This document shows positions 3,477 through 22,184 of a DNA stretch of 33,303 nucleotides, in pieces. The notes under the pieces are model-generated. The model searched no databases. It had not been told where the DNA came from and saw only the letters and a program-made list of their open reading frames with translations. Origin of the DNA: an archaeon (GTDB taxonomy: Archaea; Nanobdellota; Nanobdellia; Woesearchaeales; GW2011-AR9); assembly GCA_020053615.1 (NCBI GenBank), contig JAGVMW010000114.1:1-33303 (forward strand), read 5' to 3'. Within the stretch, counting starts at the first letter, position 1. The number at the start of each line of letters is the position of its first letter. The translations under genes were made by a program, and so were the position numbers.

Positions 3477-3565
3477 CCTCCGCTCCTCGACTGCGGTCTG
3501 CGGTGCTCTGGGACGTTGCACTTTCGCTTCGCTCACCTCGTATAACAGCAACTGCGACGTTAAAC
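3477..3565 (+). repeat. Junction element J3: GC-rich block plus core GTATAAC...GTTAAAC
   Basis: ACGTTGCACTTTCGCTTCGCTCACCTCGTATAAC-AGCAACTGCGAC-GTTAAAC aligns with J2 and J4. It has the same orientation as all other junctions. Confidence 0.7.
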
Positions 3566-6968: not shown

Positions 6969-6981
6969 CTTTATTCTTCCA

Positions 6982-7338: not shown

Positions 7339-8645
7339 GCTCTAACCTCAACAGGAACTCTGATTTTTCCTGATATTAATCTTGGAAGCAGGGAATCTCG
7401 GATTTGTGAGAGTATATTTTGAGTATTGATATTATCTTCACATTTAAGCATTATTTTAATGATCGAATCTTCAAATTTTGAAATAACTTCTTTACTCGGA
7501 ACTATTATGGACATATCCAATATATCGCTGGCAGATATCCTTTGGTGACTGCCACTCGTTCCCCTGGCCATCTGTACCAACTCACCTAACACGGAATGTT
7601 CTTTAAACAGAAGATATAAGTAGCAAAAAAAGGATTTATTTGGTTTGAAAACTAAAAATTCAGTTGAGCATATTGATTTTTCTTTAGCATTTATGACTGG
7701 CCAGATTCTGGGAATTCTTGGATTCAATTTAGAGAATAAGACAGACATATTAGTGACAATAAATTTGTTGCTTAATATTTCAGAACCCCTTTGATCAAAT
7801 GATGTTTTCCCGCCATCGTATGCTTCAATACTCAAGTGACTAAATATCTCTTCAGGAGAACTAACTGGATTTATTTGTTCCTTATTTTGCGTAGCAATAT
7901 TATGAATCATTCCAATTTTCCATCCTTTCGGTATCTTTCCTAACTCAGAATCAACCATTTCTCCGCCAGTAGACTTATATGGCTTTCCTTTCTCGTTTTG
8001 AAATTCAAAGTCTATAAACCATCTTTTGAAGATTGCTCGGCTTAACTCCTCCAAAACTTTATTTATCTTCTGATTAAGTTCTATTTTTAAATCTAAATCT
8101 GAGAGGATTTTAGCGATGGCAATTTGTTCAGGAAAAGAGGGGATATTGATTTCATAGCTCATAATCGAATTTTTATCTCCACGTGGCATTTTGGTTCCTT
8201 TAGAAGTCAAAACAGTAAATTCAAAAAAGTTATCTTGAGATAAATAGTAGTAAAGATATTTGTTGTTTATGCTTGATTTTTTCCTTATAACCAATACATC
8301 ATTAGAACAACCACCGGAAAATTTTGCCAACCAAAATTTCTTAAAATATGTCCTAATATTTGAGAATAAAATATCTCCTTCTCTGAATTGAGTTACCTTC
8401 CCAACTTTAGGTAATGAAGAAGCCACAGTAATCCCGCCTTTTTCAGGCAGCATATTTTCGGTTGAAATAAAATTATTCAGATTTATTTCAACAAGACTAA
8501 TCTTTTCAGTAATATATGAAGCAGTTTCTTTTAACTCTTTAACTTCCCAATCTTCAGGAATCATTCCTATTTCAGTTTGCTTCATCTTTGATGAATGCTC
8601 AGAAAACTTGTTTTCTGTTGGTTTTAATTTAGTTTGTTGTTTCAT
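7326..8645 (-). CDS. hsdS: Type I restriction enzyme specificity subunit (two target recognition domains)
   Basis: The TRD-start motif is duplicated (IPEDWEVKELKE and IPKGWKIGMIHNI). Conserved spacer helices are present (AIAKILSDLDLKIELNQK and SQIRDSLLPRLISGKI). Confidence 0.9.
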   Translation of the reverse strand: MKQQTKLKPTENKFSEHSSKMKQTEIGMIPEDWEVKELKETASYITEKISLVEINLNNFISTENMLPEKGGITVASSLPKVGKVTQFREGDILFSNIRTYFKKFWLAKFSGGCSNDVLVIRKKSSINNKYLYYYLSQDNFFEFTVLTSKGTKMPRGDKNSIMSYEINIPSFPEQIAIAKILSDLDLKIELNQKINKVLEELSRAIFKRWFIDFEFQNEKGKPYKSTGGEMVDSELGKIPKGWKIGMIHNIATQNKEQINPVSSPEEIFSHLSIEAYDGGKTSFDQRGSEILSNKFIVTNMSVLFSKLNPRIPRIWPVINAKEKSICSTEFLVFKPNKSFFCYLYLLFKEHSVLGELVQMARGTSGSHQRISASDILDMSIIVPSKEVISKFEDSIIKIMLKCEDNINTQNILSQIRDSLLPRLISGKIRVPVEVRAWHF

Positions 8646-9007
8646 TTCTTTTTTGCCTTCTTAGCCCAAAATGTAGATTTATCTCCTGCATGAAATCGTA
8701 TCTCGCCTTCTGCGACCTCATCAGGGTTAATCTTCATCCATCCGTCACCATTTGCAGAGTCGCATTCATCACTGCCCTCAAAGGTGAAATCATAAATCAA
8801 GTCCCCATCACATTTCTTAAAATCCCCATACATTGAACCTTGCACCAATCCAAAATGAAACTCCCCACTGCCTATTTGTTCTATTCTGATGAATGCCTGC
8901 ACTTCTTCATTGACATAATCATTATCCCATTCACTCATTTTTGTAATGTGCCATGTTCCAATGAAATCTTTTTTTCCTATTTTCGTTCGTTTTATTTTAG
9001 TTTTCAT
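8642..9007 (-). CDS. Hypothetical protein embedded in the Type I R-M operon
   Basis: It has 4-nt overlaps with both neighbours. I recognise no motif. Confidence 0.55.
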   Translation of the reverse strand: MKTKIKRTKIGKKDFIGTWHITKMSEWDNDYVNEEVQAFIRIEQIGSGEFHFGLVQGSMYGDFKKCDGDLIYDFTFEGSDECDSANGDGWMKINPDEVAEGEIRFHAGDKSTFWAKKAKKK

Positions 9008-10038
9008 CCTAAATCATTAAGCCTCTTTTCTATATCTTCTTTAGATGGCAGATACTTCATGAGTTCTTTAGGAAGCAATTGCGTTATTTTATATGTAGCA
9101 ACTCCAATTGGCTTTTTGGCATCGCGCAAAGCGTACTCTACTGTTGTTCTTCTCTTTTCTTTGCAGATAATAATACCTATAGAAGCATTCTCCTCATCTA
9201 ATTTAATCCGGCTATCCAATGCCGAAAGATAGAACTGCATTTTTCCGGCATATTCCGGTTTGAACTTACCCACTTTTAATTCAATAGCGACCAAACTTCT
9301 TAATTTTCGATGATATAATAACAAATCAATAAAGTATTCTTCATCATCTACTTCCATCCTATATTGGCTTCCAACGAAACAGAAATAGTTGCCCATCTCT
9401 GATAGGAAATTTTTGATTCTACTAACAAGGGCATTTTCCATTTCTTTTTCAGAGTGTTCTTCTCCCAACTCCAAAAAATCAAAAGTATACTCGTCTTTGA
9501 CCGCTAATTTAGCTTGATTTTGATATTTAACCGGAACAGTTTGGTCAAAGTTTGTTTGGTTGAGAAGATATTTTTCATAAGACTTGTTCTCAATTTGATG
9601 GATTAGGACATCTTTAGTCCAGCCAAACTTTCTGGTCATCTTAATATAAAACTCCCGCTCTAAATCATCTTTGCATTTCTCCATAATGATTATGTTTTTT
9701 ACCCAGCTTATTTCTCGCACCAATGGTGCGAGTTTTTCACTAGCTTTGTAATTTAGGTAAAAATTTCTCATTCTCCAAAGGTTTGCTGAAGAAAAACCTC
9801 CTACGCTAGGATATTCCGCTTGTAAATCTTTAGCTAAAGTTTCTACGATAGATTTACCCCAATCCTGCTTCTCAACTATTTTCTTACCAATATCCCAATA
9901 CAAACCAATGAGTTCTTTATTTACGGCTTTGAGTGCGGAATATTGGGCTTCTCTGATTCTTTGTTTTATTTCAATAAGAAAATGCCGATAATCATCTTTG
10001 GTTAGGTTTTTATTCATGATTTTACCTCCACTTCCCAA
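9004..10038 (-). CDS. DUF1016/YhcG-family PD-(D/E)xK nuclease
   Basis: The N-terminal region reads IREAQYSALKAVNKELIGLYWDIGKKIVEKQ...GFSSANLWRMRNFY. The C-terminal FIDLLLYH...VAIELKVGKF is a D...ExK nuclease core. Confidence 0.85.
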   Translation of the reverse strand: MGSGGKIMNKNLTKDDYRHFLIEIKQRIREAQYSALKAVNKELIGLYWDIGKKIVEKQDWGKSIVETLAKDLQAEYPSVGGFSSANLWRMRNFYLNYKASEKLAPLVREISWVKNIIIMEKCKDDLEREFYIKMTRKFGWTKDVLIHQIENKSYEKYLLNQTNFDQTVPVKYQNQAKLAVKDEYTFDFLELGEEHSEKEMENALVSRIKNFLSEMGNYFCFVGSQYRMEVDDEEYFIDLLLYHRKLRSLVAIELKVGKFKPEYAGKMQFYLSALDSRIKLDEENASIGIIICKEKRRTTVEYALRDAKKPIGVATYKITQLLPKELMKYLPSKEDIEKRLNDLG

Positions 10039-10041
10039 TCT

Positions 10042-10497
10042 TCAGGAATCATTCCTTTCCAGAAGCTTTTCATGGCTCTGGAATTTTTTGGCAAAATAAT
10101 CTTTTTTTGCGCAGGCTTCCCGAATTTCATCAATATGCGCTATATGTTTGTTTTCGTTAAGCCATTCATAAAATAAATATACGCTGAAAATAGTAGAAAG
10201 CAGTTCTGATACTGTGTTAAATATCCACTTATCAATGCACCACCTGAAAAAAGTCTCTAAAGTATACCTATCAATATCCTGCGGGCTTTCTTCTTCATCT
10301 ATTGCTAGATAGTCGTTAATATACAATTCTACATTGTTAAGGTGCTTTTTTATTGTTTTTTTGCTGAGGTTCTTTCGTAATAAGTACTCTTCAAATTGGT
10401 GGAGCAGTGCGATATTTTCTTTTTGAATTTTTTCGTATTTTTCCATTGTCCTACCTTCATCCCTTCTTTCCCCAGTAATATGTATTTCTCTCATCAA
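10042..10497 (-). CDS. Hypothetical protein with weak resemblance to the tyrosine-recombinase N-terminal SAM-like (core-binding) domain
   Basis: FEEYLLRKNLSKKTIKKHLNNVELYINDYL has the pattern of a core-binding domain. The true start may be the ATG at 10446 (MEKYEKIQ). Confidence 0.4.
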   Translation of the reverse strand: MMREIHITGERRDEGRTMEKYEKIQKENIALLHQFEEYLLRKNLSKKTIKKHLNNVELYINDYLAIDEEESPQDIDRYTLETFFRWCIDKWIFNTVSELLSTIFSVYLFYEWLNENKHIAHIDEIREACAKKDYFAKKFQSHEKLLERNDS

Positions 10498-10498
10498 A

Positions 10499-11989
10499 CT
10501 ACTTCCTTACACGCCCCCGATGTTTTAATCTCCCTCTCTGAATTACAACATATCCCCCGGTTTTCTTAGAGCCTACTTTTGTAATCCTTCCTTGATGTAT
10601 TAATTCTTGCAAGTAGCGCTTTAATGTTCCAAGGGGCATCTTTGTATCCTGTTCAATATCTGCCCGTTTACAGTTAGGATTTAGCTCGATAAAGTGAAAG
10701 ATTGTCTCAGATTTTATCGGCTCACTTATCGGCTCACTTATCGGCTCATTTAGTGGCTCAAATTTAGGATGAATCTTCAATCTTGTAATAAACTGGACTC
10801 TATCATCATCCGTAATAAATACTGGTGCAGGTGAACCATTATTTTGCATAGCACTTCTTATTTTCCTAAATCCGGTATTCTTTCCCTCTGTGAGCTTTAA
10901 TTCTTTTAAAAAATCACCAATTCTCCTATTTCTATACCGTTTAGAGATTACGATAGCATCATTAATATTATCTTTATTCAATGGAGGAAGAGGCCCAGGA
11001 TAACTGATTATATCAATTCGGTCAAGTTCGATTCTTACTTCAATCGGTGCGTCTATCTCATAGCTTTTATGATAAACAGCATTAACTAATGCTTCTTCAA
11101 TTGCAGTATAAGGATATGAAAAAAATCTTATTGCCTCTGCTTTAGTTGGCACTTTTATTACTTGTTCTTGTATTGCCGAATTTTTTATGTACTGTAAAGC
11201 AGAAATGATTTGATTTTGGAGGGGCCCGCTAAATCTTTCTTCTCTGAATTTATCACCGATTTTATCTTGGAATATGGTAACCTCAATCCAAGGGGTTTTA
11301 ATATATTTTTCTGGCTCATTGGAAAAAAATAATAGCCCTACGTTTTTAGGCTTCATCATTTCGTTAGGTCCTTCAATAATATTGAGGCTCTTGCAAAGCT
11401 CTTCAAAACTTAATGCTTTTGCACTTAATCCTGAATGAATATTCTGCAAATATGATTTAATCAACTCTACATTCAAGTCATTTAGCGATGCTTTCTGGTT
11501 TATTTGATCATCATAAGGGATCTGGTTAGACATTCCAATTAATTCTTTTTCTTCTTCTTTATTTGCAACAACTGTTGATGACGAATGACGAATATAGTAT
11601 TTATATTCTGATGCAACCCCAAACGATTTTGGTGCTTTGTACGGTCTTGCAGGGCCACCGGGGCAATATAAAATTATGAGGTTTTTAGAATTATATTTTG
11701 TGGGCTCAACAATGGGATAATAAGGCCATTGAATTTTGTTAGATAATTCTACTATTTTTTTCAAGATAAAATCTATCTGATTTTCGGCAATTCCAATTAT
11801 TCTTTTTTTATCGTCAACACCGATTATAATGTAGCCCCCTCCCCAATTATTAAAATCATTTGCAAAAGCACACATAGTATGAACTATTGATTCAGGATTA
11901 AACCCTTCTTTTAATTCAATTCTTTCTGATTCAATTAAATGTTCTTCAATTAATCGTTTGGCGTTTATTGGCAGCAGCATTTTATTCAT
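10499..11989 (-). CDS. AlbA_2 (Schlafen-like) + HATPase_c_4 + C-terminal wHTH protein, often annotated as a RecG-like putative DNA-binding regulator
   Basis: The AlbA_2 region reads ESERIELKEGFN...CAFANDFNNWGGGYIIIGVDD. The ATPase-like region reads EEALVNAVYHKSYE...RNRRIGDFLKELKLTEGKNTGFRKI. The C-terminal wHTH reads LGTLKRYLQELIHQGRITKVG. Confidence 0.8.
   Translation of the reverse strand: MNKMLLPINAKRLIEEHLIESERIELKEGFNPESIVHTMCAFANDFNNWGGGYIIIGVDDKKRIIGIAENQIDFILKKIVELSNKIQWPYYPIVEPTKYNSKNLIILYCPGGPARPYKAPKSFGVASEYKYYIRHSSSTVVANKEEEKELIGMSNQIPYDDQINQKASLNDLNVELIKSYLQNIHSGLSAKALSFEELCKSLNIIEGPNEMMKPKNVGLLFFSNEPEKYIKTPWIEVTIFQDKIGDKFREERFSGPLQNQIISALQYIKNSAIQEQVIKVPTKAEAIRFFSYPYTAIEEALVNAVYHKSYEIDAPIEVRIELDRIDIISYPGPLPPLNKDNINDAIVISKRYRNRRIGDFLKELKLTEGKNTGFRKIRSAMQNNGSPAPVFITDDDRVQFITRLKIHPKFEPLNEPISEPISEPIKSETIFHFIELNPNCKRADIEQDTKMPLGTLKRYLQELIHQGRITKVGSKKTGGYVVIQRGRLKHRGRVRK
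10714..10761. repeat. In-frame 12-bp tandem repeat: two perfect and two degenerate units of TTATCGGCTCAC
   Basis: Units lie at 10714-10725, 10726-10737, 10738-10749 and 10750-10761. They encode the EPISEPISEPI linker of the AlbA_2 protein. Confidence 0.85.
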
Positions 11990-11997
11990 TCCTTTTT

Positions 11998-13521
11998 TTA
12001 TATCTTAAACCCAATCCCTTCCAGATTCTTCTTTATTTCAACATCCAACTTCTGCCCTTCTTTCATCTGTTCAGATAATTCAGCAGTTAATCGTTTCATC
12101 TTCTCTTCAAATGCTTCGTCGTCTTCTACTTCTTCTTGGATTCCAACATATCTTCCAGGAGTCAGGATAAAATTATTCTTCTCAACCTCTTCCAATTTAG
12201 CGGATTTGCAAAGGCCAGTAACATCTTCATATTTGAGCTTGTTTTCTCCTCTCCATGCGTGATAAGTGGAAGATATTTTCTTAACATCCTCATCAGTTAG
12301 TTCTCTATGTCTTCGGTCAATCATCACACCCATATTTCTGGCATCAATAAACAAGATTTGCCCTCTTCTGTCCCTAAACGAATGGTCTTTTTTATCTCGT
12401 GTAACAAACCACAAGCAGGCAGGAATTCCAGTATTGTAGAATAACTGGGCAGGTAATGCTACCATGCAATCAACAATATCAGAAGTAATCATATCCTTCC
12501 TTATTTCGCCCTCATTAGAAGTATTTGATGACATTGAGCCATTTGCCAGAACAAAGCCAGCTACGCCAGTAGGATTCAAATGATGAATAAAATGCTGAAC
12601 CCAGGCAAAATTGGCATTATTTTTTGGAGGCACTCCAAACTTCCATCTTACATCTTCCTGCAATAATTCGCCATTCCAATCTGAATCATTAAACGGAGGA
12701 TTGGCAAGAATAAAATCTGCTTTCAAATCTTTATGCTGGTCATCATGGAAAGCATCGCCCCATTTGATATTTGAGTCAATCCCTCTGATAGCCATATTCA
12801 TCTTACAAAGCTTCCATGTTGTCTGGTTGCTTTCTTGTCCATAAACCGAAATGTCTTTTATTTTTCCGCCATGAGCCTCTACAAACTTTTCGGATTGAAC
12901 AAACATTCCACCTGAACCACAGCAGGGATCAAATATTCTTCCTTTGTATGGCTCTAACATCTCAGTTAATAGTTTTACAATAGAACGAGGAGTATAGAAC
13001 TGCCCGCCTTTCTTTCCTTCAGCAGAGGCAAATTCACCTAAAAAATATTCATAGACTCTTCCAAGAATGTCTTTACTACGATTCTCTTTATCACCAAGTC
13101 CAATCGTTCCGATTAAATCAATCAATTCCCCTAATCTTTGCTTGTTCAATCCTGGACGAGCATAATTCTTTGGCAAAACTCCTTTAAGTGAGGGATTGTC
13201 TCTTTCAATAATATCCATAGCTTCATCAAGAAATTTTCCAACTTCTGGCTTTTTTGCATTGGCTTGAAGATGCTCCCATCTTGCTACTTTTGGGACAAAG
13301 AAAATTCTCCGCGAAACATACTCATCAACATCTTCTGGATCTGAATCTTTCTCTTTTTTCAGTTTTTCATAAACTTCAGTAAAAGCATCAGAAATATACT
13401 TTAAGAAAATCAAACCTAAAACAACGTGCTTATATTCAGCAGCATCCATATTGCTTCTTAGCTTATCAGCAGAAGACCATAATTTTTGTTCAAACCCTAA
13501 ATTAGCACCGTTATTTGACAT
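11998..13521 (-). CDS. hsdM: Type I R-M N6-adenine DNA methyltransferase subunit
   Basis: It has motif [12 protein letters not shown], motif [10 protein letters not shown] and an HsdM N-terminal domain ([33 protein letters not shown]). Confidence 0.95.
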
Positions 13522-13663
13522 TTTCTCGCCCCCTCTTATCTAACTCTGCTTCCATGCACTTCTCAAACTGACGAGATACTATCCAGCCTTCTTTCTTGCA
13601 TATCTCTCTATACTTATCGTAAAGTTCAGAGTTTACTTTCAATGTGATGTTTTTTGTTTTCAT
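13511..13663 (-). CDS. Ribbon-helix-helix (CopG/Arc-like) small protein RHH-1, translationally coupled to hsdM
   Basis: [41 protein letters not shown] has a beta-strand plus two-helix pattern. The ATG at 13663 is preceded by GGTGGGGTGA. The track ORF (to 13693) begins at a GTG and is probably over-extended. A paralog lies at 32630-32779. Confidence 0.7.
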
Positions 13664-13711
13664 TTCACCCCACCTGATAAGAAATACTTGCACATACTTA
13701 TAAATATTACT

Positions 13712-13904
13712 GTTTTCTCGCCACTAACTACTGAATACTGAAACTCCCACCCTACCCACCCAAAGCGTCTTCTTTTTGTAAAAAGAAGCAAAAACAAAAC
13801 GGAATTCCCCCCTACGAACGACTAAACTAATGTCTGCTTCGCAGTAATTGATGTTAAAGTAAGTAAAAACTACGGCACCTATCTGATTTTCGGCAGTAAG
13901 AAAA
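13712..13904 (+). repeat. Leader-type (S2) repeat upstream of RHH-1/hsdM; the inverted partner of 3566-3800
   Basis: It contains GTTTTCTCGCC (13712-13722), ACGGAATTCCCCCC (13799-13812), TTAAAGTAAGTAAAAA (13854-13869) and GGCAGTAAGAAAA (13892-13904). In addition, 13799-13853 is near-identical to 32898-32953. Confidence 0.8.
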
Positions 13905-13934
13905 CTTCTCCGCTTTTTTTCTGCGGAAAAAAAT

Positions 13935-13984
13935 GCTCGACCCCGTTGCACTCTCGCTACGCTCGGGTCGGCTAACAGCGGAAG
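13935..13984 (+). repeat. Junction element J4, left half (GC-rich block plus CGGGTCGGCTAACAGCGGAAG), interrupted by the IS
   Basis: CCGTTGCACTCTCGCTACGCTCGGGTCGGCTAACAG aligns with J1, J3 and J9. The expected CATAY-GTTAWAY half is found only on the far side of the IS. Confidence 0.7.
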
Positions 13985-15541
13985 CCGTCCCGCAATCCCC
14001 TCCCAAAACACAATTTAAATCTTCATTCTTCTCAGAAAAAAATAAAATCCCTCATTTAACACTCCACTGCTCCTTTCATCCTCCAAATCTTCATTAAATT
14101 ATGAGCAATACAGGCCAAATTAAACTCAATCTTCACCTTTTCCTTGCCTCGAAGCAGGAATTCCCTGAATCCCAAGTTCTGCTTGATATTCCCATACACC
14201 GGCTCGACCGTAATTTTCCGCAAAGAATACACTTTCTTTGCTTCATCTGTTTTCATCTTGTCTCTCATCCTCAGCCGTTCACGGAAGTAGAACGGCACAT
14301 CTTTTTTCTTCCCTAATTTATCATTATAATAACTCAATATCTTCATGCCGTTTTTCCTCGTGTACTGAAACTTGAAGTAAAATCGATGTTTTCCGACGAT
14401 TAATTCATCTCTCTTGGCATCATACTCATACTGGTCGTGATTCAAACTTTGCTCCTTGCCGTCAAACTCTTGTGCTTGTGCACGAGAAGGCACATATAAA
14501 TCAATCTTATTTTCCTCCGCAAATTTAATGTTCCCCGCGTCACTATAACCGCAGTCAACTCCCACCTTTGTGTCATCTTTCAAAGTTATATTCTCTTTAA
14601 CATTCTTCATCTGCGGGATGAACTGGTGAACATCATGCTTGTCCTGGCAGATCTCATTGGCAATAATTATCTGATTCCTGTCGACAGTTAGCTGAGCATT
14701 GTAGCTCAGCTCGGAATGCCTTTTCTTGGTCTGCATGGCTCTGGCTTCAGGATCAGAAAGGGAGACTTTCTTCAACCCATACTTTTCCAGTTCATTTTTA
14801 GCTTGTTCAATATTCTTTTTGACCTTCTTCTTATCTTCTGCCTCATGGAATTCCCTAACTATTTTCTTAAGGTCTCTTTTGTCAATTCCAGTAAGCCCTT
14901 CTTCCCTATCGTCGAAGAGTTGGTCTTCCAGTTCATCCAGAGCTATATCTTCTTTGATCATCTTTTCGATAGCTTGGTCCAGTTTGTCCAACCCTTTCTT
15001 ATCCATATATCTCTTGCTACCAGCGTAGGCCTTTAAGGTTGTTCCATCGATGCTGATAAAGCTGAGGTCAGTAAGGTTGTGCCTGGCGGCGATTTCCACC
15101 GTTTTTTTGAATGCATCTTTGACAAATTCAGGATGTTCCATCCTGAAGCGGTTTATCGTCCTGAAATCTGGATGGACTTTCTCTGCCAGATACATGAAAA
15201 TAAAGTTTTCTCTGGTTGCCCTGGCCAATCTTCTGGAAGATCTGGTTTTGCAAAGCATCCCGTAAACCAAGATTTTCATGATAATTCTCGGGTGATAGGC
15301 AGGATGCCCTGCGCCTTCGTAGATCAAATCAAAGTCGGAGAAATCTAACTCATCAACATAGTTTTCCACTAGGAAACAGATGTGGTCTTTAGGAATGATT
15401 TCTGTTATCGACGGTGGCAGAAGCCAATTCTGGTCTTGGTAAGAATTTATGTATGCCATATTGCACCTCATTTTATTGATGATAAGATTATAACTTGTCG
15501 ACGGGAGAACTAGTATTTATATTTTGTGAATTATGGGACGG
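13985..15541 (-). mobile_element. IS element (IS1182/IS5-like) inserted into a junction element
   Basis: It encodes a single DDE transposase. The ends are imperfectly inverted: CCGTCCCGCAATCC...AAAACACAATTTAAAT at 13985 onward, and the reverse complement of 15500-15541 reads CCGTCCCATAATTC..AAAATATAAATAC. The boundaries could instead be 13992/15534 if CCGTCCC/GGGACGG belongs to the target hairpin. No clear target-site duplication was seen. Confidence 0.6.
14056..15471 (-). CDS. DDE transposase, IS1182/IS5 superfamily
   Basis: The N-terminal DUF772-type region reads HPAYHPRIIMKILVYGMLCKTRSSRRLARATRENFIFMYLA. The C-terminal region reads VEPVYGNIKQNLGFREFLLRGKEKVKIEFNLACIAHNLMKI. Confidence 0.85.
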   Translation of the reverse strand: MRCNMAYINSYQDQNWLLPPSITEIIPKDHICFLVENYVDELDFSDFDLIYEGAGHPAYHPRIIMKILVYGMLCKTRSSRRLARATRENFIFMYLAEKVHPDFRTINRFRMEHPEFVKDAFKKTVEIAARHNLTDLSFISIDGTTLKAYAGSKRYMDKKGLDKLDQAIEKMIKEDIALDELEDQLFDDREEGLTGIDKRDLKKIVREFHEAEDKKKVKKNIEQAKNELEKYGLKKVSLSDPEARAMQTKKRHSELSYNAQLTVDRNQIIIANEICQDKHDVHQFIPQMKNVKENITLKDDTKVGVDCGYSDAGNIKFAEENKIDLYVPSRAQAQEFDGKEQSLNHDQYEYDAKRDELIVGKHRFYFKFQYTRKNGMKILSYYNDKLGKKKDVPFYFRERLRMRDKMKTDEAKKVYSLRKITVEPVYGNIKQNLGFREFLLRGKEKVKIEFNLACIAHNLMKIWRMKGAVEC

Positions 15542-15565
15542 TCTGAGGGGTCCCATATGTTATAT
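15542..15565 (+). repeat. Junction element J4, right half (TCTGAGGGGTCCCATAT-GTTATAT)
   Basis: The core CATATGTTATAT at 15554-15565 completes the junction whose left half ends at 13984. Confidence 0.65.
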
Positions 15566-15685
15566 GACATTTTCTGTCGTTGTAACTGTACTCTACGCTA
15601 ACGCTAAACTCTAAGGACTTTATGATTGACGCTTCCGTGACAGCTAACTTTAAAACTACGAGTGGGGGCTAACTTAACGGAAAGA

Positions 15686-15695
15686 TTTATATACA
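15686..15695 (+). promoter_or_regulatory. TATA-box-like element (TTTATATACA)
   Basis: It lies about 25-30 nt upstream of the ATG at 15720, with no SD. Confidence 0.45.
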
Positions 15696-15719
15696 TAATA
15701 TGATGTATCTAAGTACATA

Positions 15720-16295
15720 ATGAAAACTGAACTCAAAATCCTTAAGAACTTTATAGAAACTAAAAAACCAAAAACGATTAGAGAGATCGCTCAACAAATT
15801 AAATCTGATTACAGAATAACCCATATTGCCGTGCAAAGACTTATTGAAAAAAATGCTCTTAAAGTCCAAACTGTGGGGAAAAGTTCTTTATGCTCGCTGA
15901 ATGAGAAATACTTTGGAAGTTATATCTACGAAACTGAAAACGAAAGAAAAGAAGAGATTCTCAAAAATAAGAATATAAACCAACTTTACAAAGAAATTAT
16001 GTCCAAAGTAAAAACAGGTTCTTTTATCCTGCTTTTATTTGGTTCTTACGCAAAAAACAAGCAGACAAAAGTGTCAGATATTGATCTTCTATTCATCTCA
16101 AATGAAAGTGGCTTTGAAAATAGAATTTCAGACATTCTTTCATTACTCCCATTAAAGACTCATGCTCTGGTATTTACAGAAGAAGAATTTATCCGGATGA
16201 AAGACTCAAAAAAGTCAAATGTAATCCAAGAAGCAATAGAAAGTAATATAATACTGTATGGGATTGAAGCTTATTATAGGATAAAAAATGCTTGA
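15720..16295 (+). CDS. wHTH + minimal nucleotidyltransferase (MNT) protein
   Basis: It carries the GSYAKNKQTKVSDIDLLF NTase signature (GS...DxD). The N-terminal wHTH reads IREIAQQIKSDYRITHIAVQRLIEKNAL. Confidence 0.75.
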   Translation: MKTELKILKNFIETKKPKTIREIAQQIKSDYRITHIAVQRLIEKNALKVQTVGKSSLCSLNEKYFGSYIYETENERKEEILKNKNINQLYKEIMSKVKTGSFILLLFGSYAKNKQTKVSDIDLLFISNESGFENRISDILSLLPLKTHALVFTEEEFIRMKDSKKSNVIQEAIESNIILYGIEAYYRIKNA

Positions 16296-16824
16296 CGAAA
16301 AACGAATTAAAGAAGCGGAATCAAACGTGAGGCAGTATCTACAAGATAATCTGCTTAAGAAACAGACAGATGAGACGGCTAGAGCAATGTATATTGAAAA
16401 TGCTGATCTTTCACTGGAGACGGCTAAGAGACTTCTTGCTTTAGAAAGTAAAGATTATCAGCCTTATCTCTGGGTAATTGTCCCCTCTTACTATTCAATG
16501 TATTATATTGCCAATGCCATCCTTTTAAAATTAGGGTATAAAGTAGGAGATAAAATAAGTCATAAAGTAACTGCCGATGCCATTATTGTTTTTGTCAGAA
16601 ATAAACTCAAGAAAAGCCTCCTAGAAGAATATGAGAATGCTCAGGCAGACGCACTGGAATTAATGTCACAGCGAGCCGATGTTTTATTGAAATCCCTTGA
16701 CGAAGAACGACAAAAACGGTCAAAATTTCAATATCAAATGGATGAGCAGGTGAAACGAGGAAAAGCAATAACTTCTCTGGAACGGGCTAAAGAATTTGTG
16801 TTTGAGATGAAGAAGTTGTTATAG
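16288..16824 (+). CDS. HEPN-like (UPF0332-type) partner of the MNT
   Basis: It overlaps the MNT gene by 8 nt. The protein looks all-helical, and YYSMYYIANAILLKLGYKVGDKISHKVT resembles archaeal HEPN/UPF0332 proteins. I did not see a clean Rx4-6H motif. Confidence 0.5.
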   Translation: MLDEKRIKEAESNVRQYLQDNLLKKQTDETARAMYIENADLSLETAKRLLALESKDYQPYLWVIVPSYYSMYYIANAILLKLGYKVGDKISHKVTADAIIVFVRNKLKKSLLEEYENAQADALELMSQRADVLLKSLDEERQKRSKFQYQMDEQVKRGKAITSLERAKEFVFEMKKLL

Positions 16825-17394
16825 GTAAATTTTTTTATTTTAAAGAGATTTCCCACAGTTCAGGCTCATGATCCAGGAACGCCAAACGCCGTTGGCGCGA
16901 TTTCCATCGCCAAAGCCACTGAAGTATTAGAATCAATTGGTTATGATCGTATTCACAAATATGAATCTGAATTAGTTAGAACTGCATTCAGAGGATTAAA
17001 GCAAACTGATGGCGTAACAGTTTATGTTTCTGAATCAGAATTAGGTAGCGTCATTCCTTTTGATATTACAGGGACAGATAGCCGATTAACTGCTGAAATC
17101 CTAAGAGATGATTATGGGATTGGCGTACGAGCAGGTTCATTCTGTACTTATGAATTCATGAGAAAAATCAAAAATATTTCTGATGAACAAGACAAAAAAA
17201 TCTTAGAAGAAATTGATAGAGGCATCACAAGAAGTATTCCCGGAGTTGTTAGGGCTAGTTTTGGCTTAGTGAATAATCAAGAAGATGTTACAAGATTAAT
17301 TTCTGCTGTTAATGAAATCGCTCACAATGGAATAGAACATTATTTCGAAATATACAACCAAGACAATACCACCGGATTGTGGACAAAGAGGTAA
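16825..17394 (+). pseudogene. 5'-truncated class V aminotransferase / cysteine desulfurase-like gene (C-terminal third only)
   Basis: The frame is open from the stop at 16822-16824. From about 16861 it reads QAHDPGTPNAVGAISIAKATEVL... The xxGTPN motif normally sits about two thirds of the way into SufS/NifS-type enzymes. The PLP-lysine region is absent, and there is no ATG before 17158. Confidence 0.65.
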
Positions 17395-17397
17395 AAA

Positions 17398-18096
17398 ATG
17401 GCAACAAACGTTAAACCTAATGAATTGAATTACGACCATTACGAAACAAAAAAATATGACGATGATATTGTTCGCTCTATTCCAGGACATGAGGAACTTC
17501 ATAGACACATAGACCAAATTATTCAAAGAGATTATATTTCAAGAGGAAAAGTTAAAGTCTTAGAATTAGGAGTTGGAACGGGATTAACAGCAGAAAGAAT
17601 ATTAGGACAAATGCCAAATGCGGAATATACAGCCGTTGATTTCTCTGAGCAAATGCTCGCAGGAGCAAGAAGACGTTTATCTCAATATAATGTAACATTT
17701 GTAAATGGTGATTATTCACAAATTGATCTTCCAAATGATAACGACCTCGTAGTTTCTATTGTAGGAATACACCACCAAAAGACCAATAAAGATAAAAAAT
17801 CTCTTTTTCAAAAAATATACCATTCCATAGCTGAAGATGGTTCTTTCATTTTTGGAGATTTGGTTACATATAAAGACAGAACAGAAGCAGCTTTAAATGA
17901 AGCAAGACATTACCATCATCTTGTTGAACACGCAGAAAATGAAGAATCATTAAGAGAATGGGCGCACCATCACAAATTCTTAAACAAACTTGCTCCTTTA
18001 GAAAACCAAGTAAAATGGCTTAGAGAAGTTGGTTTTAAAAAAGTAAAATTAGTCTACCAGAAATTCAATACTGCTTTAATCTATGCAACAAAATAA
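17398..18096 (+). CDS. Class I SAM-dependent methyltransferase
   Basis: Motif I is VLELGVGTGLTAERIL. The N-terminal YDDDIVRSIPGHEELHRHI resembles CmoA-like enzymes. VVSIVGIHH is post-motif II. Confidence 0.8.
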   Translation: MATNVKPNELNYDHYETKKYDDDIVRSIPGHEELHRHIDQIIQRDYISRGKVKVLELGVGTGLTAERILGQMPNAEYTAVDFSEQMLAGARRRLSQYNVTFVNGDYSQIDLPNDNDLVVSIVGIHHQKTNKDKKSLFQKIYHSIAEDGSFIFGDLVTYKDRTEAALNEARHYHHLVEHAENEESLREWAHHHKFLNKLAPLENQVKWLREVGFKKVKLVYQKFNTALIYATK

Positions 18097-18098
18097 TG

Positions 18099-18950
18099 TC
18101 AATTCTCTTGTTTTGATTTCTTCTTTTCCAATCTTTTAACTGATTCAGCTTGCTCTACATAATTTTCAGAAGTAATAACTCTTCTGCCACTTTTTGTTTC
18201 CAAATCTCTTCTGGCTCTTCCGGCAACAGCTCCACCTTCTTGAGCAGCTTTTTTGCCCTCATCAAATCCCTCTACATTTTTATTCTTTGTAATTTCTGTT
18301 GTAGCTGCCTCACCAAGCATGGAAAAGATAAGCTCCAAGTCTGTCATGTGGTCGCGTAAATTTTCCCGTTTCAGTCCCTTTAACTCTTTGTACTCGGACG
18401 GCGTTAAACCAAAAGTCGCTTTGGATATTTCTGCGGTGAGAATTGCATATTCCCTTTCAGTCTTTATAGCTCGCTTATCCCATTCGCCGGTTAATTCATC
18501 CCTTATTGCTATCCCCCTTACCCTTCGCTCAATCCATTCATCAGAGTATCCTTTCTTTTTGTACAATTCCCTCATCCTTTTTTGAGCAAGCTCCGGGTTT
18601 TCTATCTCTTGTACTCGTTCATAGCCAACCTTTGCCAGCCATCTCTTAAATGGTTCTGCTTTCGGAGAGGGAATGGATTGAACAATCCTCAAGAGAGTTT
18701 CAGTATTGGCACAGTCCGTTTCATAAAACTTACCATCGGAAGACGGTAACTTCAGTTGTACGATTTTTTCGTACAACTCAAATCCTTCATCTTTGAGCTT
18801 AATTTTTAGATCAGACCAATATCTTCTAGGAATAGAGCTGCCAGTTAAGACTGTTACAATATCTATTATGGAGAAGAACCATTCTTCATTATGCCACAAT
18901 CTTCGTATGCCTTTTCCCTGAAAAACAATTAATGATGTTTCCGGATCCAT
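18099..18950 (-). CDS. Bro-N domain / DinD-like (DNA-damage-inducible protein D family) protein
   Basis: The N-terminal region reads FQGKGIRRLWHNEEWFFSIIDIVTVLTGS (Bro-N pattern). The C-terminal ENLRDHMTDLELIFSMLGEAATTEI resembles DinD. Confidence 0.65.
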   Translation of the reverse strand: MDPETSLIVFQGKGIRRLWHNEEWFFSIIDIVTVLTGSSIPRRYWSDLKIKLKDEGFELYEKIVQLKLPSSDGKFYETDCANTETLLRIVQSIPSPKAEPFKRWLAKVGYERVQEIENPELAQKRMRELYKKKGYSDEWIERRVRGIAIRDELTGEWDKRAIKTEREYAILTAEISKATFGLTPSEYKELKGLKRENLRDHMTDLELIFSMLGEAATTEITKNKNVEGFDEGKKAAQEGGAVAGRARRDLETKSGRRVITSENYVEQAESVKRLEKKKSKQEN

Positions 18951-19226
18951 TCTAATAGTTATTAAATAGACATTTCTTTAAATACTTTGTCCAAACCTGT
19001 CCAGTGACCAGTGGCTCTCTAAATGGAAACAACGGCTCTTAAATCCCCCTAACTTTTGTCTCTCTTCTCTCATATTCAAATAATCGAACTTTTGACGAAC
19101 TACGGTGGCACCTAAAGTCTCGGGAATGTTAAAACTTCTTCGGTTTAATGTCCTTCGGACTTAAACCTCGACCACGCTGCGCTTTCCCTACGATTTTTAT
19201 ATTCCCTTCGGTCATTAAAAATCTTC

Positions 19227-19395
19227 GGTCGGGTCGGCAAACAGGGGTTTACAGGAATTTTACTCGGCTCGTAAAATTCCCAAATGTCAATCCAGCTCTC
19301 AAAAATTTCTCAGCTCTGATTTTTGTGGGCTACCTCAAAAATCGAGGAGAAATTTTTGGAGGGATTGCCACTTCTGTAAACCCCATACGTTAAAC
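19227..19395 (+). repeat. Junction element copy A2: 166-nt structured repeat plus core CATAC-GTTAAAC
   Basis: It matches 118-283 except at 19325-19336. The closing base pair of the apical hairpin is swapped relative to copy A1 (G19325/C19336 versus C216/G227). A TTTTTATATT box at 19193-19202 lies about 25-30 nt upstream. Confidence 0.8.
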
Positions 19396-19399
19396 TCAA

Positions 19400-19434
19400 T
19401 AAAATTTCTGTTAGACTAAACTTAAGGGGTGCTT
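19400..19434. repeat. Left arm of the inverted repeat flanking the GIY-YIG/Mrr/Zn-ribbon block
   Basis: TAAAATTTCTGTTAG (19400-19414) and GGGGTGCTT (19426-19434) are exact reverse complements of 20913-20927 and 20900-20908. Confidence 0.85.
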
Positions 19435-19477
19435 ATTTTCTAATGGTTTGTAAGATAGCTTTGTAAAGGTCGAAAGA

Positions 19478-19487
19478 TTTTTATAGG
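19478..19487 (+). promoter_or_regulatory. TATA-box-like element (TTTTTATAGG)
   Basis: It lies about 25-30 nt upstream of the ATG at 19510. Confidence 0.4.
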
Positions 19488-19509
19488 TAGTTAAGAGTTA
19501 ATATATAAA

Positions 19510-20052
19510 ATGGAAATTAAACAAATATTAGATAAAATTGAATCAAATAAAAGCATACAACAATTTCCAAAAACCTCTGGAATTTATGTAATGTATGCAA
19601 AAAATAACATTATTTTTGATTTTATTACAATTAATAAAGGAGAAATAATATATATTGGCAAAAGTGAAAGTTCATTATCTGATAGAAAAACAAAACAACA
19701 TTTTAGTTCTGAAAGTACTGGTCGGTCAACTGTGAGAAGAAGTTTAGGTGCTATCCTAAAAAAAGAATTTGATATAAAATGTTTTTTAAGAGGTAAAGGA
19801 AAATCTAAAAATGATTCTAATTGTTATATATTTGATAAGGAAAGTGAAATCAGATTAACTAATTGGATGAATGAAAATATTTCCATGTCTTTTTTTGTCA
19901 CAAATAATCCAGAAGAAATAGAAGTTAGGTTAATTGCAAAATATAATCCTATTCTAAATCTAAAAGAAGCAGAACATAATTTTATAACACATATCAAAGA
20001 TTTAAGAACTAAATGTAAAGATGAAGCTGAACAAAATGGTGTCTTGAAATGA
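19510..20052 (+). CDS. GIY-YIG nuclease-domain protein
   Basis: SGIYVMYAKNN...EIIYIGKSESSLSDR fits GIY-x(n)-YIG, followed by a conserved Arg region (RSTVRRSLG). Confidence 0.6.
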   Translation: MEIKQILDKIESNKSIQQFPKTSGIYVMYAKNNIIFDFITINKGEIIYIGKSESSLSDRKTKQHFSSESTGRSTVRRSLGAILKKEFDIKCFLRGKGKSKNDSNCYIFDKESEIRLTNWMNENISMSFFVTNNPEEIEVRLIAKYNPILNLKEAEHNFITHIKDLRTKCKDEAEQNGVLK

Positions 20053-20723
20053 ATCCTAAAGAATATGAAGAATATATTGGCGAATATTTCAAAAATAAAG
20101 GGTATGATATTAAAGTAACTTCTTTTACAAATGATTATGGTGTTGATTGTTTTGCTTCAAAAGGAAAAGAAAAGATTGCAGTACAAGTAAAAATGTATGG
20201 TGAGGGTATTAGACCTGTAAATAGAAAAATGATGATGGAATTATATGGTGCAATGCACTATTTTGACTGCAATAAAGCAAAACTTGTAACAAATGGCAGA
20301 ATATTAGATGATGCCAAAGAAGTTGCAGATAAGTTAGGTATTGAAATATTATATGTCGAAGCAGTTGAAAATCATAATTCTAAAACGAAAATAGATGAAA
20401 CTTCTTTTGAATTTATCTGGGAAAGATATATCTTGCCATTAAAAGGAAAAACATTAACTAGAACTAATGGAGATACAAATATAATAAAAGATGTGGATTG
20501 GAGCGGAATAAAAAGAATAACTTCAAATGGCAACACTGCAAAAATAGATATTGAGATTTTCAAACAAGTTATTAACCACTTAAGGAAAAATGGAGAAATT
20601 TCTCGCAAAGAAATCAATGATGATTATTCAGGTAGAGCTTCATCTGGAATATGCTTAATATTATCACAAGTTCCTTTTATTCAATATCACAATAGTCCTT
20701 CAAAATTAATTTGGAGAAAATAA
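20049..20723 (+). CDS. Mrr-cat type restriction endonuclease domain protein with an unknown C-terminal domain
   Basis: YEEYIGEYFKNKGYDIKVTSFTNDYGVDCFASKGKEKIAVQVKMY fits the D...(Q/E)xK PD-(D/E)xK core of Mrr_cat. The start overlaps the upstream stop as ATGA. Confidence 0.65.
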   Translation: MNPKEYEEYIGEYFKNKGYDIKVTSFTNDYGVDCFASKGKEKIAVQVKMYGEGIRPVNRKMMMELYGAMHYFDCNKAKLVTNGRILDDAKEVADKLGIEILYVEAVENHNSKTKIDETSFEFIWERYILPLKGKTLTRTNGDTNIIKDVDWSGIKRITSNGNTAKIDIEIFKQVINHLRKNGEISRKEINDDYSGRASSGICLILSQVPFIQYHNSPSKLIWRK

Positions 20724-20724
20724 A

Positions 20725-20901
20725 ATGGTTCAAATTCCTTGTCAAAATTGCGGAAAGATGTATCCTGAAGAATGGTCTTGGTATAGCTGTAATAAATGTG
20801 ATTATAGAATTTGTCAATCTTGCATTTCCAAACATAAAGGTAAATATGGAAGCGGTTTCAAATGTAGTCAATGTACATTTGGACAAATGAAACGAAAATA
20901 A
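20725..20901 (+). CDS. 58-aa double zinc-ribbon protein (four CxxC pairs); not in the supplied ORF track
   Basis: My manual translation gives MVQIPCQNCGKMYPEEWSWYSCNKCDYRICQSCISKHKGKYGSGFKCSQCTFGQMKRK. The ATG lies 1 nt after the upstream stop. Confidence 0.5.
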   Translation: MVQIPCQNCGKMYPEEWSWYSCNKCDYRICQSCISKHKGKYGSGFKCSQCTFGQMKRK

Positions 20902-20927
20902 GCACCCCACGACTAACAGAAATTTTA
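20900..20927. repeat. Right arm of the inverted repeat flanking the GIY-YIG/Mrr/Zn-ribbon block
   Basis: AAGCACCCC (20900-20908) and CTAACAGAAATTTTA (20913-20927) pair with the left arm. The arm overlaps the Zn-ribbon stop codon. Confidence 0.85.
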
Positions 20928-20950
20928 CTTTGAATTTTTGCCTTCGACAT

Positions 20951-21000
20951 CGTTGCACTAAAATTCAATCCTAACGGAGAGTTTAACAGCGATGTTATAC
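20951..21000 (+). repeat. Junction element J7 (CGTTGCACT ... TTTAACAGCGAT-GTTATAC)
   Basis: CGTTGCACT (20951-20959) matches the S1 block of J3 and J4. AACAGCG plus GTTATAC (20985-21000) match the core. It has the same orientation as the other junctions. Confidence 0.6.
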
Positions 21001-21175
21001 TCAATATTTTAATCACCTTTTCAGGCACGCTGTCGCTTCCGTAAATCTTACGCATTGGCACCTTCGCTAAATCGGCAACGACGACAAAACGAAATTCAAT
21101 TACTTCGTAACTAAACCTAACGATGATTTAGCGGTTCACTCCATTCTCCCAAATTTTCGCTAACATAAACTAATA

Positions 21176-21238
21176 GGGGGAGTTCTAAACTTTCTGACAA
21201 CTAACTTTGACGAGGGGGGAGTTCCGTGACGACGAGAA
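21176..21238 (+). repeat. S2-type block (GGGGGAGTTCTAAAC ... GGGGGGAGTTCCGTGACGACGAGAA) next to the 3' end of the large minus-strand block
   Basis: It resembles 3738-3800 (GGGGGGAATTCCGTAACGA...GCGAGAAAAC). It is also the inverse, with one mismatch, of ACGGAATTCCCCC at 32898-32910. Confidence 0.55.
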
Positions 21239-21257
21239 TAAGTGCTTTTCAGATTGA

Positions 21258-21509
21258 CTAAATGCTTCCTTGATGCACAAGAATTACAGCACCACCAGAT
21301 ACTATAGTTCTAAGATTTCCCACCTGACGCTGGAAGATTTCACTGCCATTAAAAAATGCAGCGTGTCCGTGAGGGCTACCAATATTTGGATAACCATAGA
21401 TTACATCAGTCCTTACACCACTAGCTGAACCACGATCATTCCAATTGAACCAACCGTCGTTTGTGCGAATACTATTATTTTGGTACATATCTGAACTCTT
21501 TATGAGCAT
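21258..21509 (-). CDS. Hypothetical 83-aa Gly/Asn-rich protein
   Basis: Its start overlaps the stop of the Cas4-like gene as TAATG. I recognise no motif. Confidence 0.4.
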   Translation of the reverse strand: MLIKSSDMYQNNSIRTNDGWFNWNDRGSASGVRTDVIYGYPNIGSPHGHAAFFNGSEIFQRQVGNLRTIVSGGAVILVHQGSI

Positions 21510-22183
21510 TACTTTTTAATTATTTCGCAAGAATTCTGAACCCATTCACAAAACCCACATTCTTCAGAGGGAGCGGGAATTTCAGCTTCTAAAACTTGAA
21601 CAACTTTCTTAAAAATATTCTCGGCGTTCTTGATATTAACTTTAATCTTGATTAAATCCTTATGGAAGTCTACATCACCATTCTCATGGACTTTGCTAGG
21701 ATGGTAAAATAATAGATAAGTATAATCCTCTGTCTCATAGCCATTCTTTCGTAAGAGAAAATTGTAGATATCCATCTGGTCTTGATAATGCTCGTGCGTA
21801 TCTTCTTTTAATGGGTAGCCTCTGGTTTTATAATCTAAAACAATCAGTTTCTTTCCCTTTTGGAGCAGATTATCAATAGCTCCATGAAAGAGATTACCTT
21901 TTTTATCAGTCCATGGTATTCCTTTGAAATTGCTTCTCCAAACTTTGAGGAGTTCTTCATTGTCAAAGAGCTTTACTTCACCTTTTAATTGTTGAAGTTC
22001 TGGAGGCAATTCTCCTCTTTTCATAAAGCGGTCAAAATGTTCTTTGAGAATTTTATCCATTCCACTCGGAAGAGATGGGAAAATGGAATCTGGACGTTTA
22101 ATGTTCTTGTTTAAAGCAAGCCAGAAACATCTAGGGCAATCTTTCAGTAAGCTTAGGCTTGATGGGCTGAATTTGTAGGTCAT
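21509..22183 (-). CDS. Cas4/RecB-like PD-(D/E)xK nuclease with a Cys cluster
   Basis: Motifs are GAIDNL, VLDYKT and QDQMDIY (QxxxY). Cysteines occur at CPRC (N-terminal) and CGFCEWVQNSC (C-terminal), as in Fe-S Cas4/AddB-type nucleases. Confidence 0.75.
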   Translation of the reverse strand: MTYKFSPSSLSLLKDCPRCFWLALNKNIKRPDSIFPSLPSGMDKILKEHFDRFMKRGELPPELQQLKGEVKLFDNEELLKVWRSNFKGIPWTDKKGNLFHGAIDNLLQKGKKLIVLDYKTRGYPLKEDTHEHYQDQMDIYNFLLRKNGYETEDYTYLLFYHPSKVHENGDVDFHKDLIKIKVNIKNAENIFKKVVQVLEAEIPAPSEECGFCEWVQNSCEIIKK

Positions 22184-22184
22184 T

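Follow-up and report, generated by a model that had tools for sequence, protein, structure and literature searches.

Within a 33,303-nt stretch of DNA from an archaeon of the Woesearchaeales (lineage GW2011-AR9; contig JAGVMW010000114.1, assembly GCA_020053615.1), hereafter the window, a 1565-bp insertion sequence (IS) at positions 13981-15545 separates the two halves of a repeated junction, Jd, with its transposase open reading frame (ORF) on the minus strand. The best explanation, in which we have considerable confidence, is that an autonomous IS1182-family element with a DDE transposase transposed into the core of a cassette boundary. Related copies (64-96% amino acid identity) on Woesearchaeota and Nanoarchaeota contigs represent 26 independent insertions, nearly all at one position and in one orientation. 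It is highly probable that this lineage targets the sequence TAAC-AGSR-RTTA site-specifically and duplicates the 4-bp target.

Identity and boundaries of the inserted element

On the plus strand, Jd reads GCTCGGGTCGGC TAAC AGCG up to the element, which opens with GAAGCCGTCCCGCAATCCCC and closes, over 1565 bp, with GTGAATTATGGGACGGTCTG; the junction then resumes as AGGG GTCCCATAT GTTATAT GAC. Removal of the element leaves the flanks CGGGTCGGCTAAC AGCG/AGGG GTCCCATAT GTTATAT, with the left half CGGGTCGGCTAACAG at 13964-13978 and the right half CATATGTTATAT at 15554-15565. An earlier note, made from the sequence alone, had described a junction split by an IS into its AAC and GTTA halves, and both the sequence and the coordinates given there hold.

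The transposase gene (14056-15459, minus strand) encodes an intact protein of 467 aa and is the sole ORF filling the element. A GAGGTG motif lies 5' of the ATG at 15459, while the mechanical ORF list begins the gene four codons upstream of that ATG. Pfam domains DUF772 and DDE_Tnp_1/DDE_Tnp_1_6 occupy the N- and C-terminal parts, respectively, and more than 100 homologues are 465-470 aa long. The NCBIfam model NF033551 (transpos_IS1182) matches residues 7-460 with 330.1 bits (cutoff 270), and the IS5, IS4, and ISNCY models all score far under their own cutoffs. Elements of the IS1182 family are about 1.3-1.95 kb long (ISfinder range). The length of 1565 bp and the imperfect ~20-bp terminal inverted repeats sharing CCGTCCC..AAT are consistent with that family, to which the element belongs by every feature tested; its identity and boundaries are assigned with very high confidence.

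Element ends were set by nucleotide alignment with copies at other sites (L008, 93% nucleotide identity; L001, 86%; L004, 72%). Similarity among these copies opens at CAGAC(C/T)GTC and closes at GGGACGGC(TTC/CTG), and the outer flanks differ. One terminal inverted repeat, at the 3' end of the transposase gene, is GAAGCCGTCCCGCAATCCCC (13981-14000) and includes the heptamer CCGTCCC (13985-13991); the other, at the 5' end, is GTGAATTATGGGACGGTCTG (15526-15545; reverse complement CAGACCGTCCCATAATTCAC) and includes GGGACGG (15535-15541). The terminal-repeat consensus is CAGRCYGTCCCAYAATTC at the 5' end and GA(A/C)GCYGTCYCRYAAT, read inward, at the 3' end, and both are kept across relatives whatever the flank. 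The two heptamers, proposed earlier as possible IS termini, are the conserved centre of these ~20-bp repeats. GAAG (13981-13984) and TCTG (15542-15545), which had been counted as junction sequence, fall inside the IS in the alignment with the three related copies.

More than 1,300 transposase homologues were recovered. The best 120 span 447-487 aa and lie mostly on 1.5-2-kb contigs, as is expected of a multi-copy repeat. One homologue (P0004), from a Bathyarchaeota metagenome-assembled genome, is named an IS1182 family transposase by NCBI. Genome contigs bearing relatives are labelled Woesearchaeota, Nanoarchaeota/Nanoarchaeia, or Bathyarchaeota, and an eIF2-gamma gene lies near one locus; these labels and this gene indicate that the host is a DPANN-type archaeon. 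No relatives of the IS, and no occurrence of the IS-junction pattern, were found in viral contigs. Since the window copy is intact and shares 93% DNA identity with a copy at another junction in another sample, the lineage has been mobile recently.

Target-site specificity

Loci were fetched by transposase similarity alone (6 from genomes, 28 from metagenomes, and later 9 for one further variant), and their flanks therefore form an unbiased sample of insertion sites. After removal of duplicates, 24 left and 21 right flanks were retained, and two later copies also fit. Read in the orientation of the junction, the flank logo is T23 A24 A22 C20 A24 G19 S R on the left (counts out of 24) and A19 G16 S R R T21 T19 W A on the right (counts out of 21), with the IS between. 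The earlier proposal of site-specific insertion is thus upheld once other copies are examined: T-A-A stands at −8 to −6 in 22-24 of 24 flanks, C at −5 in 20/24, A at −4 in 24/24, and G at −3 in 19/24, with T at +6 in 21/21 and at +7 in 19/21. The hexamer TAACAG occupies −8 to −3 in 14 of the 24 independent left flanks (chance ~3e-4 per fixed site; binomial P ~5e-43), and the relaxed form TAAYAN is found in 21/24.

These positions describe a palindromic core, TAAC-[AGSR]-RTTA, with the IS at its centre. In the window, the left (R''-like) arm TAAC lies at 13973-13976, corresponding to logo positions −8 to −5, and is followed at 13977-13980 by AGCG, the left copy of the 4-bp target (−4 to −1, A G S R). 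Beyond the IS come AGGG, the right copy (15546-15549; +1 to +4, A G S R), the remainder of the junction centre, GTCCCATAT (15550-15558), and the right (R'-like) arm GTTATAT (15559-15565), all read on the plus strand. In a comparison with the sequence AACAGGGGTTTACAG...CTGTAAACCCCATACGTTA of junctions Ja and Je, GTCCCATAT together with the preceding GGG appears to resemble the outermost bases of the P1 stem of a structured element of 166-nt type (GGGGT...CCCC), followed by an ATAT spacer.

Across copies, the right target arm (RTTWA) is supplied in some cases by the GTTA half of the junction, as in L003/27 (ACATGTTAAAT), and in others by the start of the structured insert of 166-nt type (GTTTTAC..., ATTAAG..., or ATTTAAC...) that is present in many junctions. 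The transposase gene is antisense to the junction in all copies but one; in L004, the element lies the other way round between these halves. A 131-bp miniature inverted-repeat transposable element (MITE) with both IS termini, at L001:3778-3908 and also in L009 and L010, sits in a minimal core, TAAC AGGA-MITE-AGCA GTTAATG, where the right arm is again the GTTA half (AGCAGTTAATG). In L001 this MITE lies ~1 kb from a full-length copy of the IS.

Cleavage falls on either side of the central tetramer, which is thereby duplicated. A symmetric target with the duplication at its centre suggests that the transposase reads the core directly, most likely in dimeric form on duplex DNA. For the IS, the junction would be a repeated, intergenic, and harmless landing site that travels with cassettes.

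As a separate observation, a ~440-bp internal fragment of a transposase gene (residues 234-380) at L005:5000-5485 directly adjoins the left half of a junction (CGGGTCGGCAAACAGGGGTC), which shares 93% identity with the left flank of Ja; unrelated DNA lies on the other side of the fragment. The fragment is a decayed or rearranged insertion at an array edge.

Target duplication and unequal tetramers

Comparison of an empty and a filled site proves the 4-bp target duplication. The empty site in L041 reads GGGAGAAACTAAC AGGA ATTTAACGGTTCCG, with the core CTAAC AGGA ATTTAACGG. The filled site in L013 reads CGACGCAACTAAC AGGA-IS-AGGA ATTTAACGGTTCCG, with the core CTAAC AGGA-IS-AGGA ATTTAACGG, and its right flank is identical to that of L041 over 72 nt. 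Perfect duplications also occur on two long contigs of 409 kb and 622 kb (L050, AGGG-IS-AGGG; L052, AGCG-IS-AGCG) and in L012, L013, L018, and L020.

Several observations weigh against the explanation given at the outset. In the first set of loci, just 4/18 flank pairs have identical tetramers, and those in the window are unequal (AGCG on the left, AGGG on the right). Left flanks of L023, L025, and L028 (3 of about 27 flanks) are not junction-like, and most loci are short metagenome contigs that are possibly chimeric at repeats. Exact-protein look-ups with the transposase (two starts), the NUDIX protein, and the 1245-aa methylase gave no match, and no empty-site allele of the exact window locus was obtained. 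Many of the targets lie next to a strong stem (P1 of 166-like elements). Finally, no recombinase for the junctions was found, which bears on the suggestion that insertion abolishes junction function. A duplication of 2 bp (AG), or none at all, was considered because most tetramer pairs differ; both were ruled out by the L041/L013 pair and by the copies on long contigs.

The mismatches can be accounted for by one transposase variant (P0043). Its long contigs hold the flank combinations A-IS-Y and B-IS-X with matching tetramers, while short contigs of other samples (L049 and L056) hold the reciprocal A-IS-X and B-IS-Y with mismatched tetramers. Such reciprocal pairs indicate that flanks are exchanged between IS copies, by recombination or by assembly across the repeat, which yields patterns of the AGCG-IS-AGGG kind. 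The flanks in the window therefore probably come from two different junctions, through IS-IS recombination or an assembly join across the repeat. Accordingly, the reconstructed Jd may never have existed as a single site, and window positions 1-13980 and 15546-33303 may have been joined by an IS-mediated event or a mis-join.

Junctions as cassette boundaries

Four copies of the left half-motif CGGGTCGNNNAACAG and five of the right half-motif CATAYGTTAWAY were counted in the window, all on the plus strand, against chance expectations of 0.02 and 0.03, respectively. A gap of 13 or 146 nt separates the halves at Ja (121-291), Je (19230-19400), and Jg (33133-33165); a gap of ~1.58 kb exists solely at Jd. 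Three further junctions carry variant left halves: Jb (~910-938), Jc (~3535-3565), and Jf (~20976-21003). All seven lie on the plus strand and thus share one direction, and centres measure 6-146 nt. Between them lie defence and accessory modules: NUDIX; AbiE-like proteins with GrpB; a type I restriction-modification (R-M) operon; nucleotidyltransferase/HEPN; a methyltransferase; Bro-N; GIY-YIG with Mrr; and an operon encoding a PLD-helicase and an Eco57I-methylase. The left module of Jd, GCTCGACCCCGTTGCACTCTCGCTACGCTCGGGTCGGC (13935-13972, plus strand), contains the conserved CGTTGCAC and CGGGTCG. It is part of a repeat (D8) shared with Jc, and the same module stands beside IS-occupied junctions in other loci.

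Evidence of cassette exchange comes from a nucleotidyltransferase/HEPN cassette encoding an identical protein (P0135), which follows a glycosyltransferase gene in L041 and a peptidase gene in L042. Identity between these DNAs sets in precisely at ATGTTAGGCG, the GTTA half, and their upstream cassettes differ. The copy in the window is homologous from CATATGTTA onward. The GTTATAT arm of Jd forms the left boundary of this cassette, as indicated by the CATAYGTTAWAY count and by identity among cassette copies, which starts at ATGTTA. L041 and L013, in turn, are identical from CTAACAGGA on, including a 166-like element, and differ upstream, which indicates that exchange also takes place at the TAAC arm and that the 166-like element acts as a non-coding mini-cassette. 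From these sequence comparisons, the junctions can with good confidence be taken as cassette-boundary recombination sites of no assigned type. No junction was found upstream of one nucleotidyltransferase homologue (P0123).

Could the TAAC...RTTA flanks, perhaps along with an adjacent 166-like element, instead belong to a larger mobile unit that does not target existing junctions? The flanks are kept in nearly all copies and several copies adjoin a 166-like element, but we consider this very improbable. IS-free junctions with identical halves are common, and those with matching halves and left modules are present both in the window and in other loci. Similarity among copies ends at the IS termini (CAG.../...GGCTTC), beyond which the outer flanks differ. 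These two facts place the flanks with the junction rather than with the IS. At the empty site in L041, core and 166-like element are present and the IS is missing, which contradicts a larger unit; the window IS lacks a 166-like element, while Ja and Je carry one and lack the IS. In L004, moreover, the IS is reversed between the same two halves. Transposition into pre-existing junctions remains the explanation that we adopt. Insertion at Jd parts the junction arms by 1.57 kb, and this should disable the site for recombination and fuse its neighbours, the type I R-M operon on the left and the nucleotidyltransferase/HEPN cassette on the right.

Several further features of the modules were recorded. 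In other Nanoarchaeia contigs (L035-L040), the nucleotidyltransferase/HEPN module follows ATP-citrate-lyase genes without any junction. In the window, the C-terminal third of a class-V aminotransferase gene lies directly 3' of the HEPN gene (16867-17394; Aminotran_5 positions 251-371 of 371, E = 6e-21) and its 5' part is missing, so the module abuts a truncated gene. Four repeat pairs are spaced ~19.1 kb apart (19100-19126): 118-291/19227-19400, 13521-13654/32634-32767, 13677-13711/32803-32837, and 13807-13869/32907-32969. They make the window two near-equal units with unrelated gene content between the shared modules, which could reflect chance, an ancient duplication followed by replacement of cassettes, or an effect of the assembly.

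The two minus-strand defence operons (type I R-M, and PLD-helicase/Eco57I-methylase) lie in conserved frames of ~230-250 nt, at 3566-3800 and 13700-13935 for one and at 21000-21250 and 32790-32990 for the other. The frames have inverted GGGGGGAATTCCG/CGGAATTCCCCCC motifs at both ends and a common promoter-side module, ACGACTAAA.TAATGTCTGCTTCGCAGTAATTGAT...AAAAACTACGG, which is also found in a Nanoarchaeota contig (L004:2280-2400). Motifs like GGGGGAGTTC recur beside junctions in several loci.

Sequence versus structure in target recognition

Folded as single-stranded DNA, the junctions differ widely. The junction bearing the 166-nt element has z = −8.4 relative to shuffled sequences (Ja and Je are strong), and Jb (z = −3.1) and Jf (z = −4.2) form small hairpins. 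Jc (z = 1.0), Jg (z = 1.35), and the reconstructed Jd (z = 0.1) fold no better than shuffled sequences, and the idea that the IS entered a hairpin at Jd finds no support in the last value.

Within the IS1182 family, IS1272 inserts into stem-loops whose sequences are unrelated to one another. Together with TnSha1, it uses targets without a sequence consensus, produces no target duplication, and partly deletes or replaces the stem (PMC5678879; PMC4923244). If the present lineage behaved likewise, any hairpin or cruciform would be recognised, junctions would simply be the commonest hairpins, and the conserved flank bases would be those of the junction family. The strong folding of the 166-nt element, the small hairpins of the minimal cores Jb and Jf, and the P1 stems beside many occupied sites are in keeping with this. 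Yet the insertion point is nucleotide-exact relative to TAAC in ~24 events, including insertions into minimal cores without an extra stem (L003/27, L016, L012, and the MITE), and the 4-bp duplication stands against the partial stem deletion, without duplication, seen with IS1272. The reconstructed Jd core does not fold, and the strong orientation bias suits reading of an asymmetric sequence. On this evidence, structure-directed insertion is unlikely. We favour recognition of the core sequence over recognition of structure, given the fixed target, the 4-bp duplication, and a target left intact, unlike that of IS1272; an adjacent stem may contribute.

The P3 palindrome and the 166-nt element family

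The earlier note also suggested that the heptamers could instead be the paired arms of a hairpin stem in the junction, and that P3, a palindrome in the 166-nt element, may be a MITE-like derivative of the IS. That the heptamers are stem halves with cargo between them, or that P3 is a MITE left by the IS, is extremely unlikely. CCGTCCC and GGGACGG are indeed perfect complements, and a gapped match of 16/17 nt links the subterminal IS sequence to a P3 arm. In every related IS at other sites, however, the heptamers are embedded in the terminal repeats (CAGRCYGTCCCAYAATTC), which excludes them from the junction. The best local alignment of the IS left end with the 166-nt element pairs GCAATCCCCTCCCAAAA with GCAAT-CCCTCCAAAAA (P3, GCAATCCCTCCAAAAA) at a score of 22, against a null of 14.9 +/- 2.4. 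Its p = 0.017 applies to one end before correction for two ends and two strands; for the other end, p = 0.2.

P3 lacks CAGRCYGTCCC termini, and the IS stretch that it matches is subterminal, within the terminal repeat, and varies among copies (for example GGGAAAAGAATTATGGGAC and TTTTGGAATTGTGAGAC). The matching part of P3 is an outer extension specific to the window: the arms in L004 are GCAAAGATTTTC/GAAAATCTTTGC and those in the window CAAAAATTTCT/AGAAATTTTTG, and they co-vary. The similarity is thus lineage-specific and lacks the termini, both of which the genuine MITE retains. Derivation of P3 from the IS was rejected on the weak subterminal similarity, the missing termini, and the absence or divergence of the matching sequence in other 166-like elements.

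Elements of the 166-nt type were located at window positions 134-279 and 19243-19388, at L004:4100-4245, L001 ~4790-4915 (minus strand), L024 ~800-920 (minus strand), and L041:3745-3885, and at L042 ~2300-2480. They share the unpaired motifs CCAAAT, GGGTTGCC, CAGCTCT, and CGAGG, a P2 loop of TCGGCTC or YTGCAS, and co-varying stems. Two seemingly circularly permuted orders exist, CAGCTCT-hairpin-CGAGG (window, L004, and L042) and CGAGG-hairpin-CAGCTCT (L001, L024, and L041). Elements of this type change neighbours on both sides, like a non-coding mini-cassette.

Recombinase search and junction type

No integron integrase was found in the window or among ORFs of at least 200 aa from ~120 kb of loci, and arrays may run past the DNA covered. 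The sole recombinase-like match (L008:4609-5676, minus strand in that locus) is an AEP-TOTE primase domain fused to a partial Xer-like tyrosine-recombinase domain. It is encoded by a cassette gene beside an IS-occupied junction, and the match is weak (39.7 bits for the XerA/integron-integrase model, against a cutoff of 220). Within the type I R-M operon of the window, a 151-aa ORF (10042-10497, minus strand) matches the phage-integrase N-terminal SAM-like domain alone (E ~4e-5, at or below Pfam cutoffs), with no catalytic domain after it.

The junctions carry ...AAC and GTT... arms in direct arrays between cassettes, as attC sites do, and fit RYYYAAC/GTTRRRY in part. An attC site is an imperfect hairpin of 55-140 nt with an L''/L' stem and extrahelical bases. 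Cassette exchange with a crossover at the GTT arm, as is characteristic of attC, is seen in L041/L042. A core of the Xer/dif type has two ~11-bp inverted arms and a 6-bp spacer and is bound by XerA. In Jb, Jf, and the L012 target, arms of 8 bp surround a 6-bp spacer; the other junctions have longer centres. Neither the junction nor the 166-nt element nor the IS ends matched a family in Rfam, with only sub-threshold matches to miRNA-like hairpins, and a search for tRNA genes was negative. The archaeal-integron paper includes Woesearchaeales genomes in its supplement, which contains none of the junction motifs and no accessions of the present loci.

Taken together, we hold it an evenly balanced proposition that the junctions are recombination sites of an undescribed DPANN cassette-array system whose layout is integron-like, whose minimal core resembles dif, and in which the 166-nt family provides structured, non-coding mini-cassettes. 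In that case, the IS1182 lineage, together with its MITE, would be a parasite dedicated to reading the recombinase core TAAC-N4-RTTA. It would also be the first archaeal counterpart of the IS1111-attC elements and the first of DDE type.

Comparison with known systems

Clusters of attC sites have been reported in archaea, including Woesearchaeales (Ghaly et al. 2022, PMC9668308). Like integron attC sites, the junctions stand in direct orientation between cassettes, with an ...AAC left arm, a GTTA... right arm, a variable and often stem-forming centre, and exchange at the GTTA arm. They differ in the size of their centres (6-146 nt), in that certain cores consist simply of two 8-bp inverted arms around a 6-bp spacer, and in showing exchange at the TAAC arm as well; moreover, no integron integrase was found in the DNA covered. 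The minimal core of Jb, CGTATAAC-ACATAC-GTTATACG, looks like a tyrosine-recombinase core such as the P. abyssi dif site, ATTGGATATAA-TCGGCC-TTATATCTAAA. The minimal junctions presumably also resemble bacterial dif sites of pdif modules. Whereas dif is single-copy at the terminus, the junctions form arrays with variable spacers and long left modules.

Precedents for insertion into such sites had been drawn from IS1111-attC elements and group IIC-attC introns. That parallel stands for the strategy, as the junctions are recombination-type cassette boundaries, and fails for the mechanism, which here involves a DDE transposase and a 4-bp duplication. IS1111-attC elements of the IS110/IS1111 group encode a DEDD transposase and a seekRNA guide, live in bacterial hosts, and lack terminal inverted repeats of this kind (PMC11187229). 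They share with the archaeal lineage a dedication to cassette-separating sites, a fixed position, a preferred orientation, and a repeated, harmless, and mobile landing site. By contrast, the archaeal IS has a DDE_Tnp_1-type enzyme, inverted repeats, a 4-bp duplication, and a DPANN host, and its site is not a canonical attC. Group IIC-attC introns are retroelements, comprising a ribozyme and a reverse transcriptase, that insert strand-specifically into folded attC (PMC3001079). They likewise home to cassette recombination sites beside a stem, with machinery that the archaeal IS does not have.

Within its own family, the IS shares with staphylococcal IS1272 and TnSha1 the NF033551 assignment, the DUF772 and DDE domains, a single ORF, terminal inverted repeats, palindromic or inverted-repeat intergenic targets, and the possibility of both orientations. 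The archaeal lineage differs in its fixed TAAC-AGSR-RTTA target, its 4-bp duplication, and a target left intact. No paper linking IS1182-family elements to cassette recombination sites was found.

Implications

Copies of the IS cause assembly mis-joins, and contigs that cross one, including the window, need checking for this reason. The sharp target TAAC-AGSR-RTTA and its 4-bp duplication mark the functional core of otherwise variable junctions, and the target offers a simple sequence handle for locating such arrays in DPANN genomes. For the arrays themselves, insertion should freeze a junction and fuse the adjoining cassettes, and copies in direct orientation would promote cassette loss. With its DDE transposase, the lineage is a case of convergence, in which a third, mechanistically unrelated kind of mobile element, in another domain of life, has come to live in cassette recombination sites. 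The cassette system that it parasitises may be a more novel object than the IS itself.

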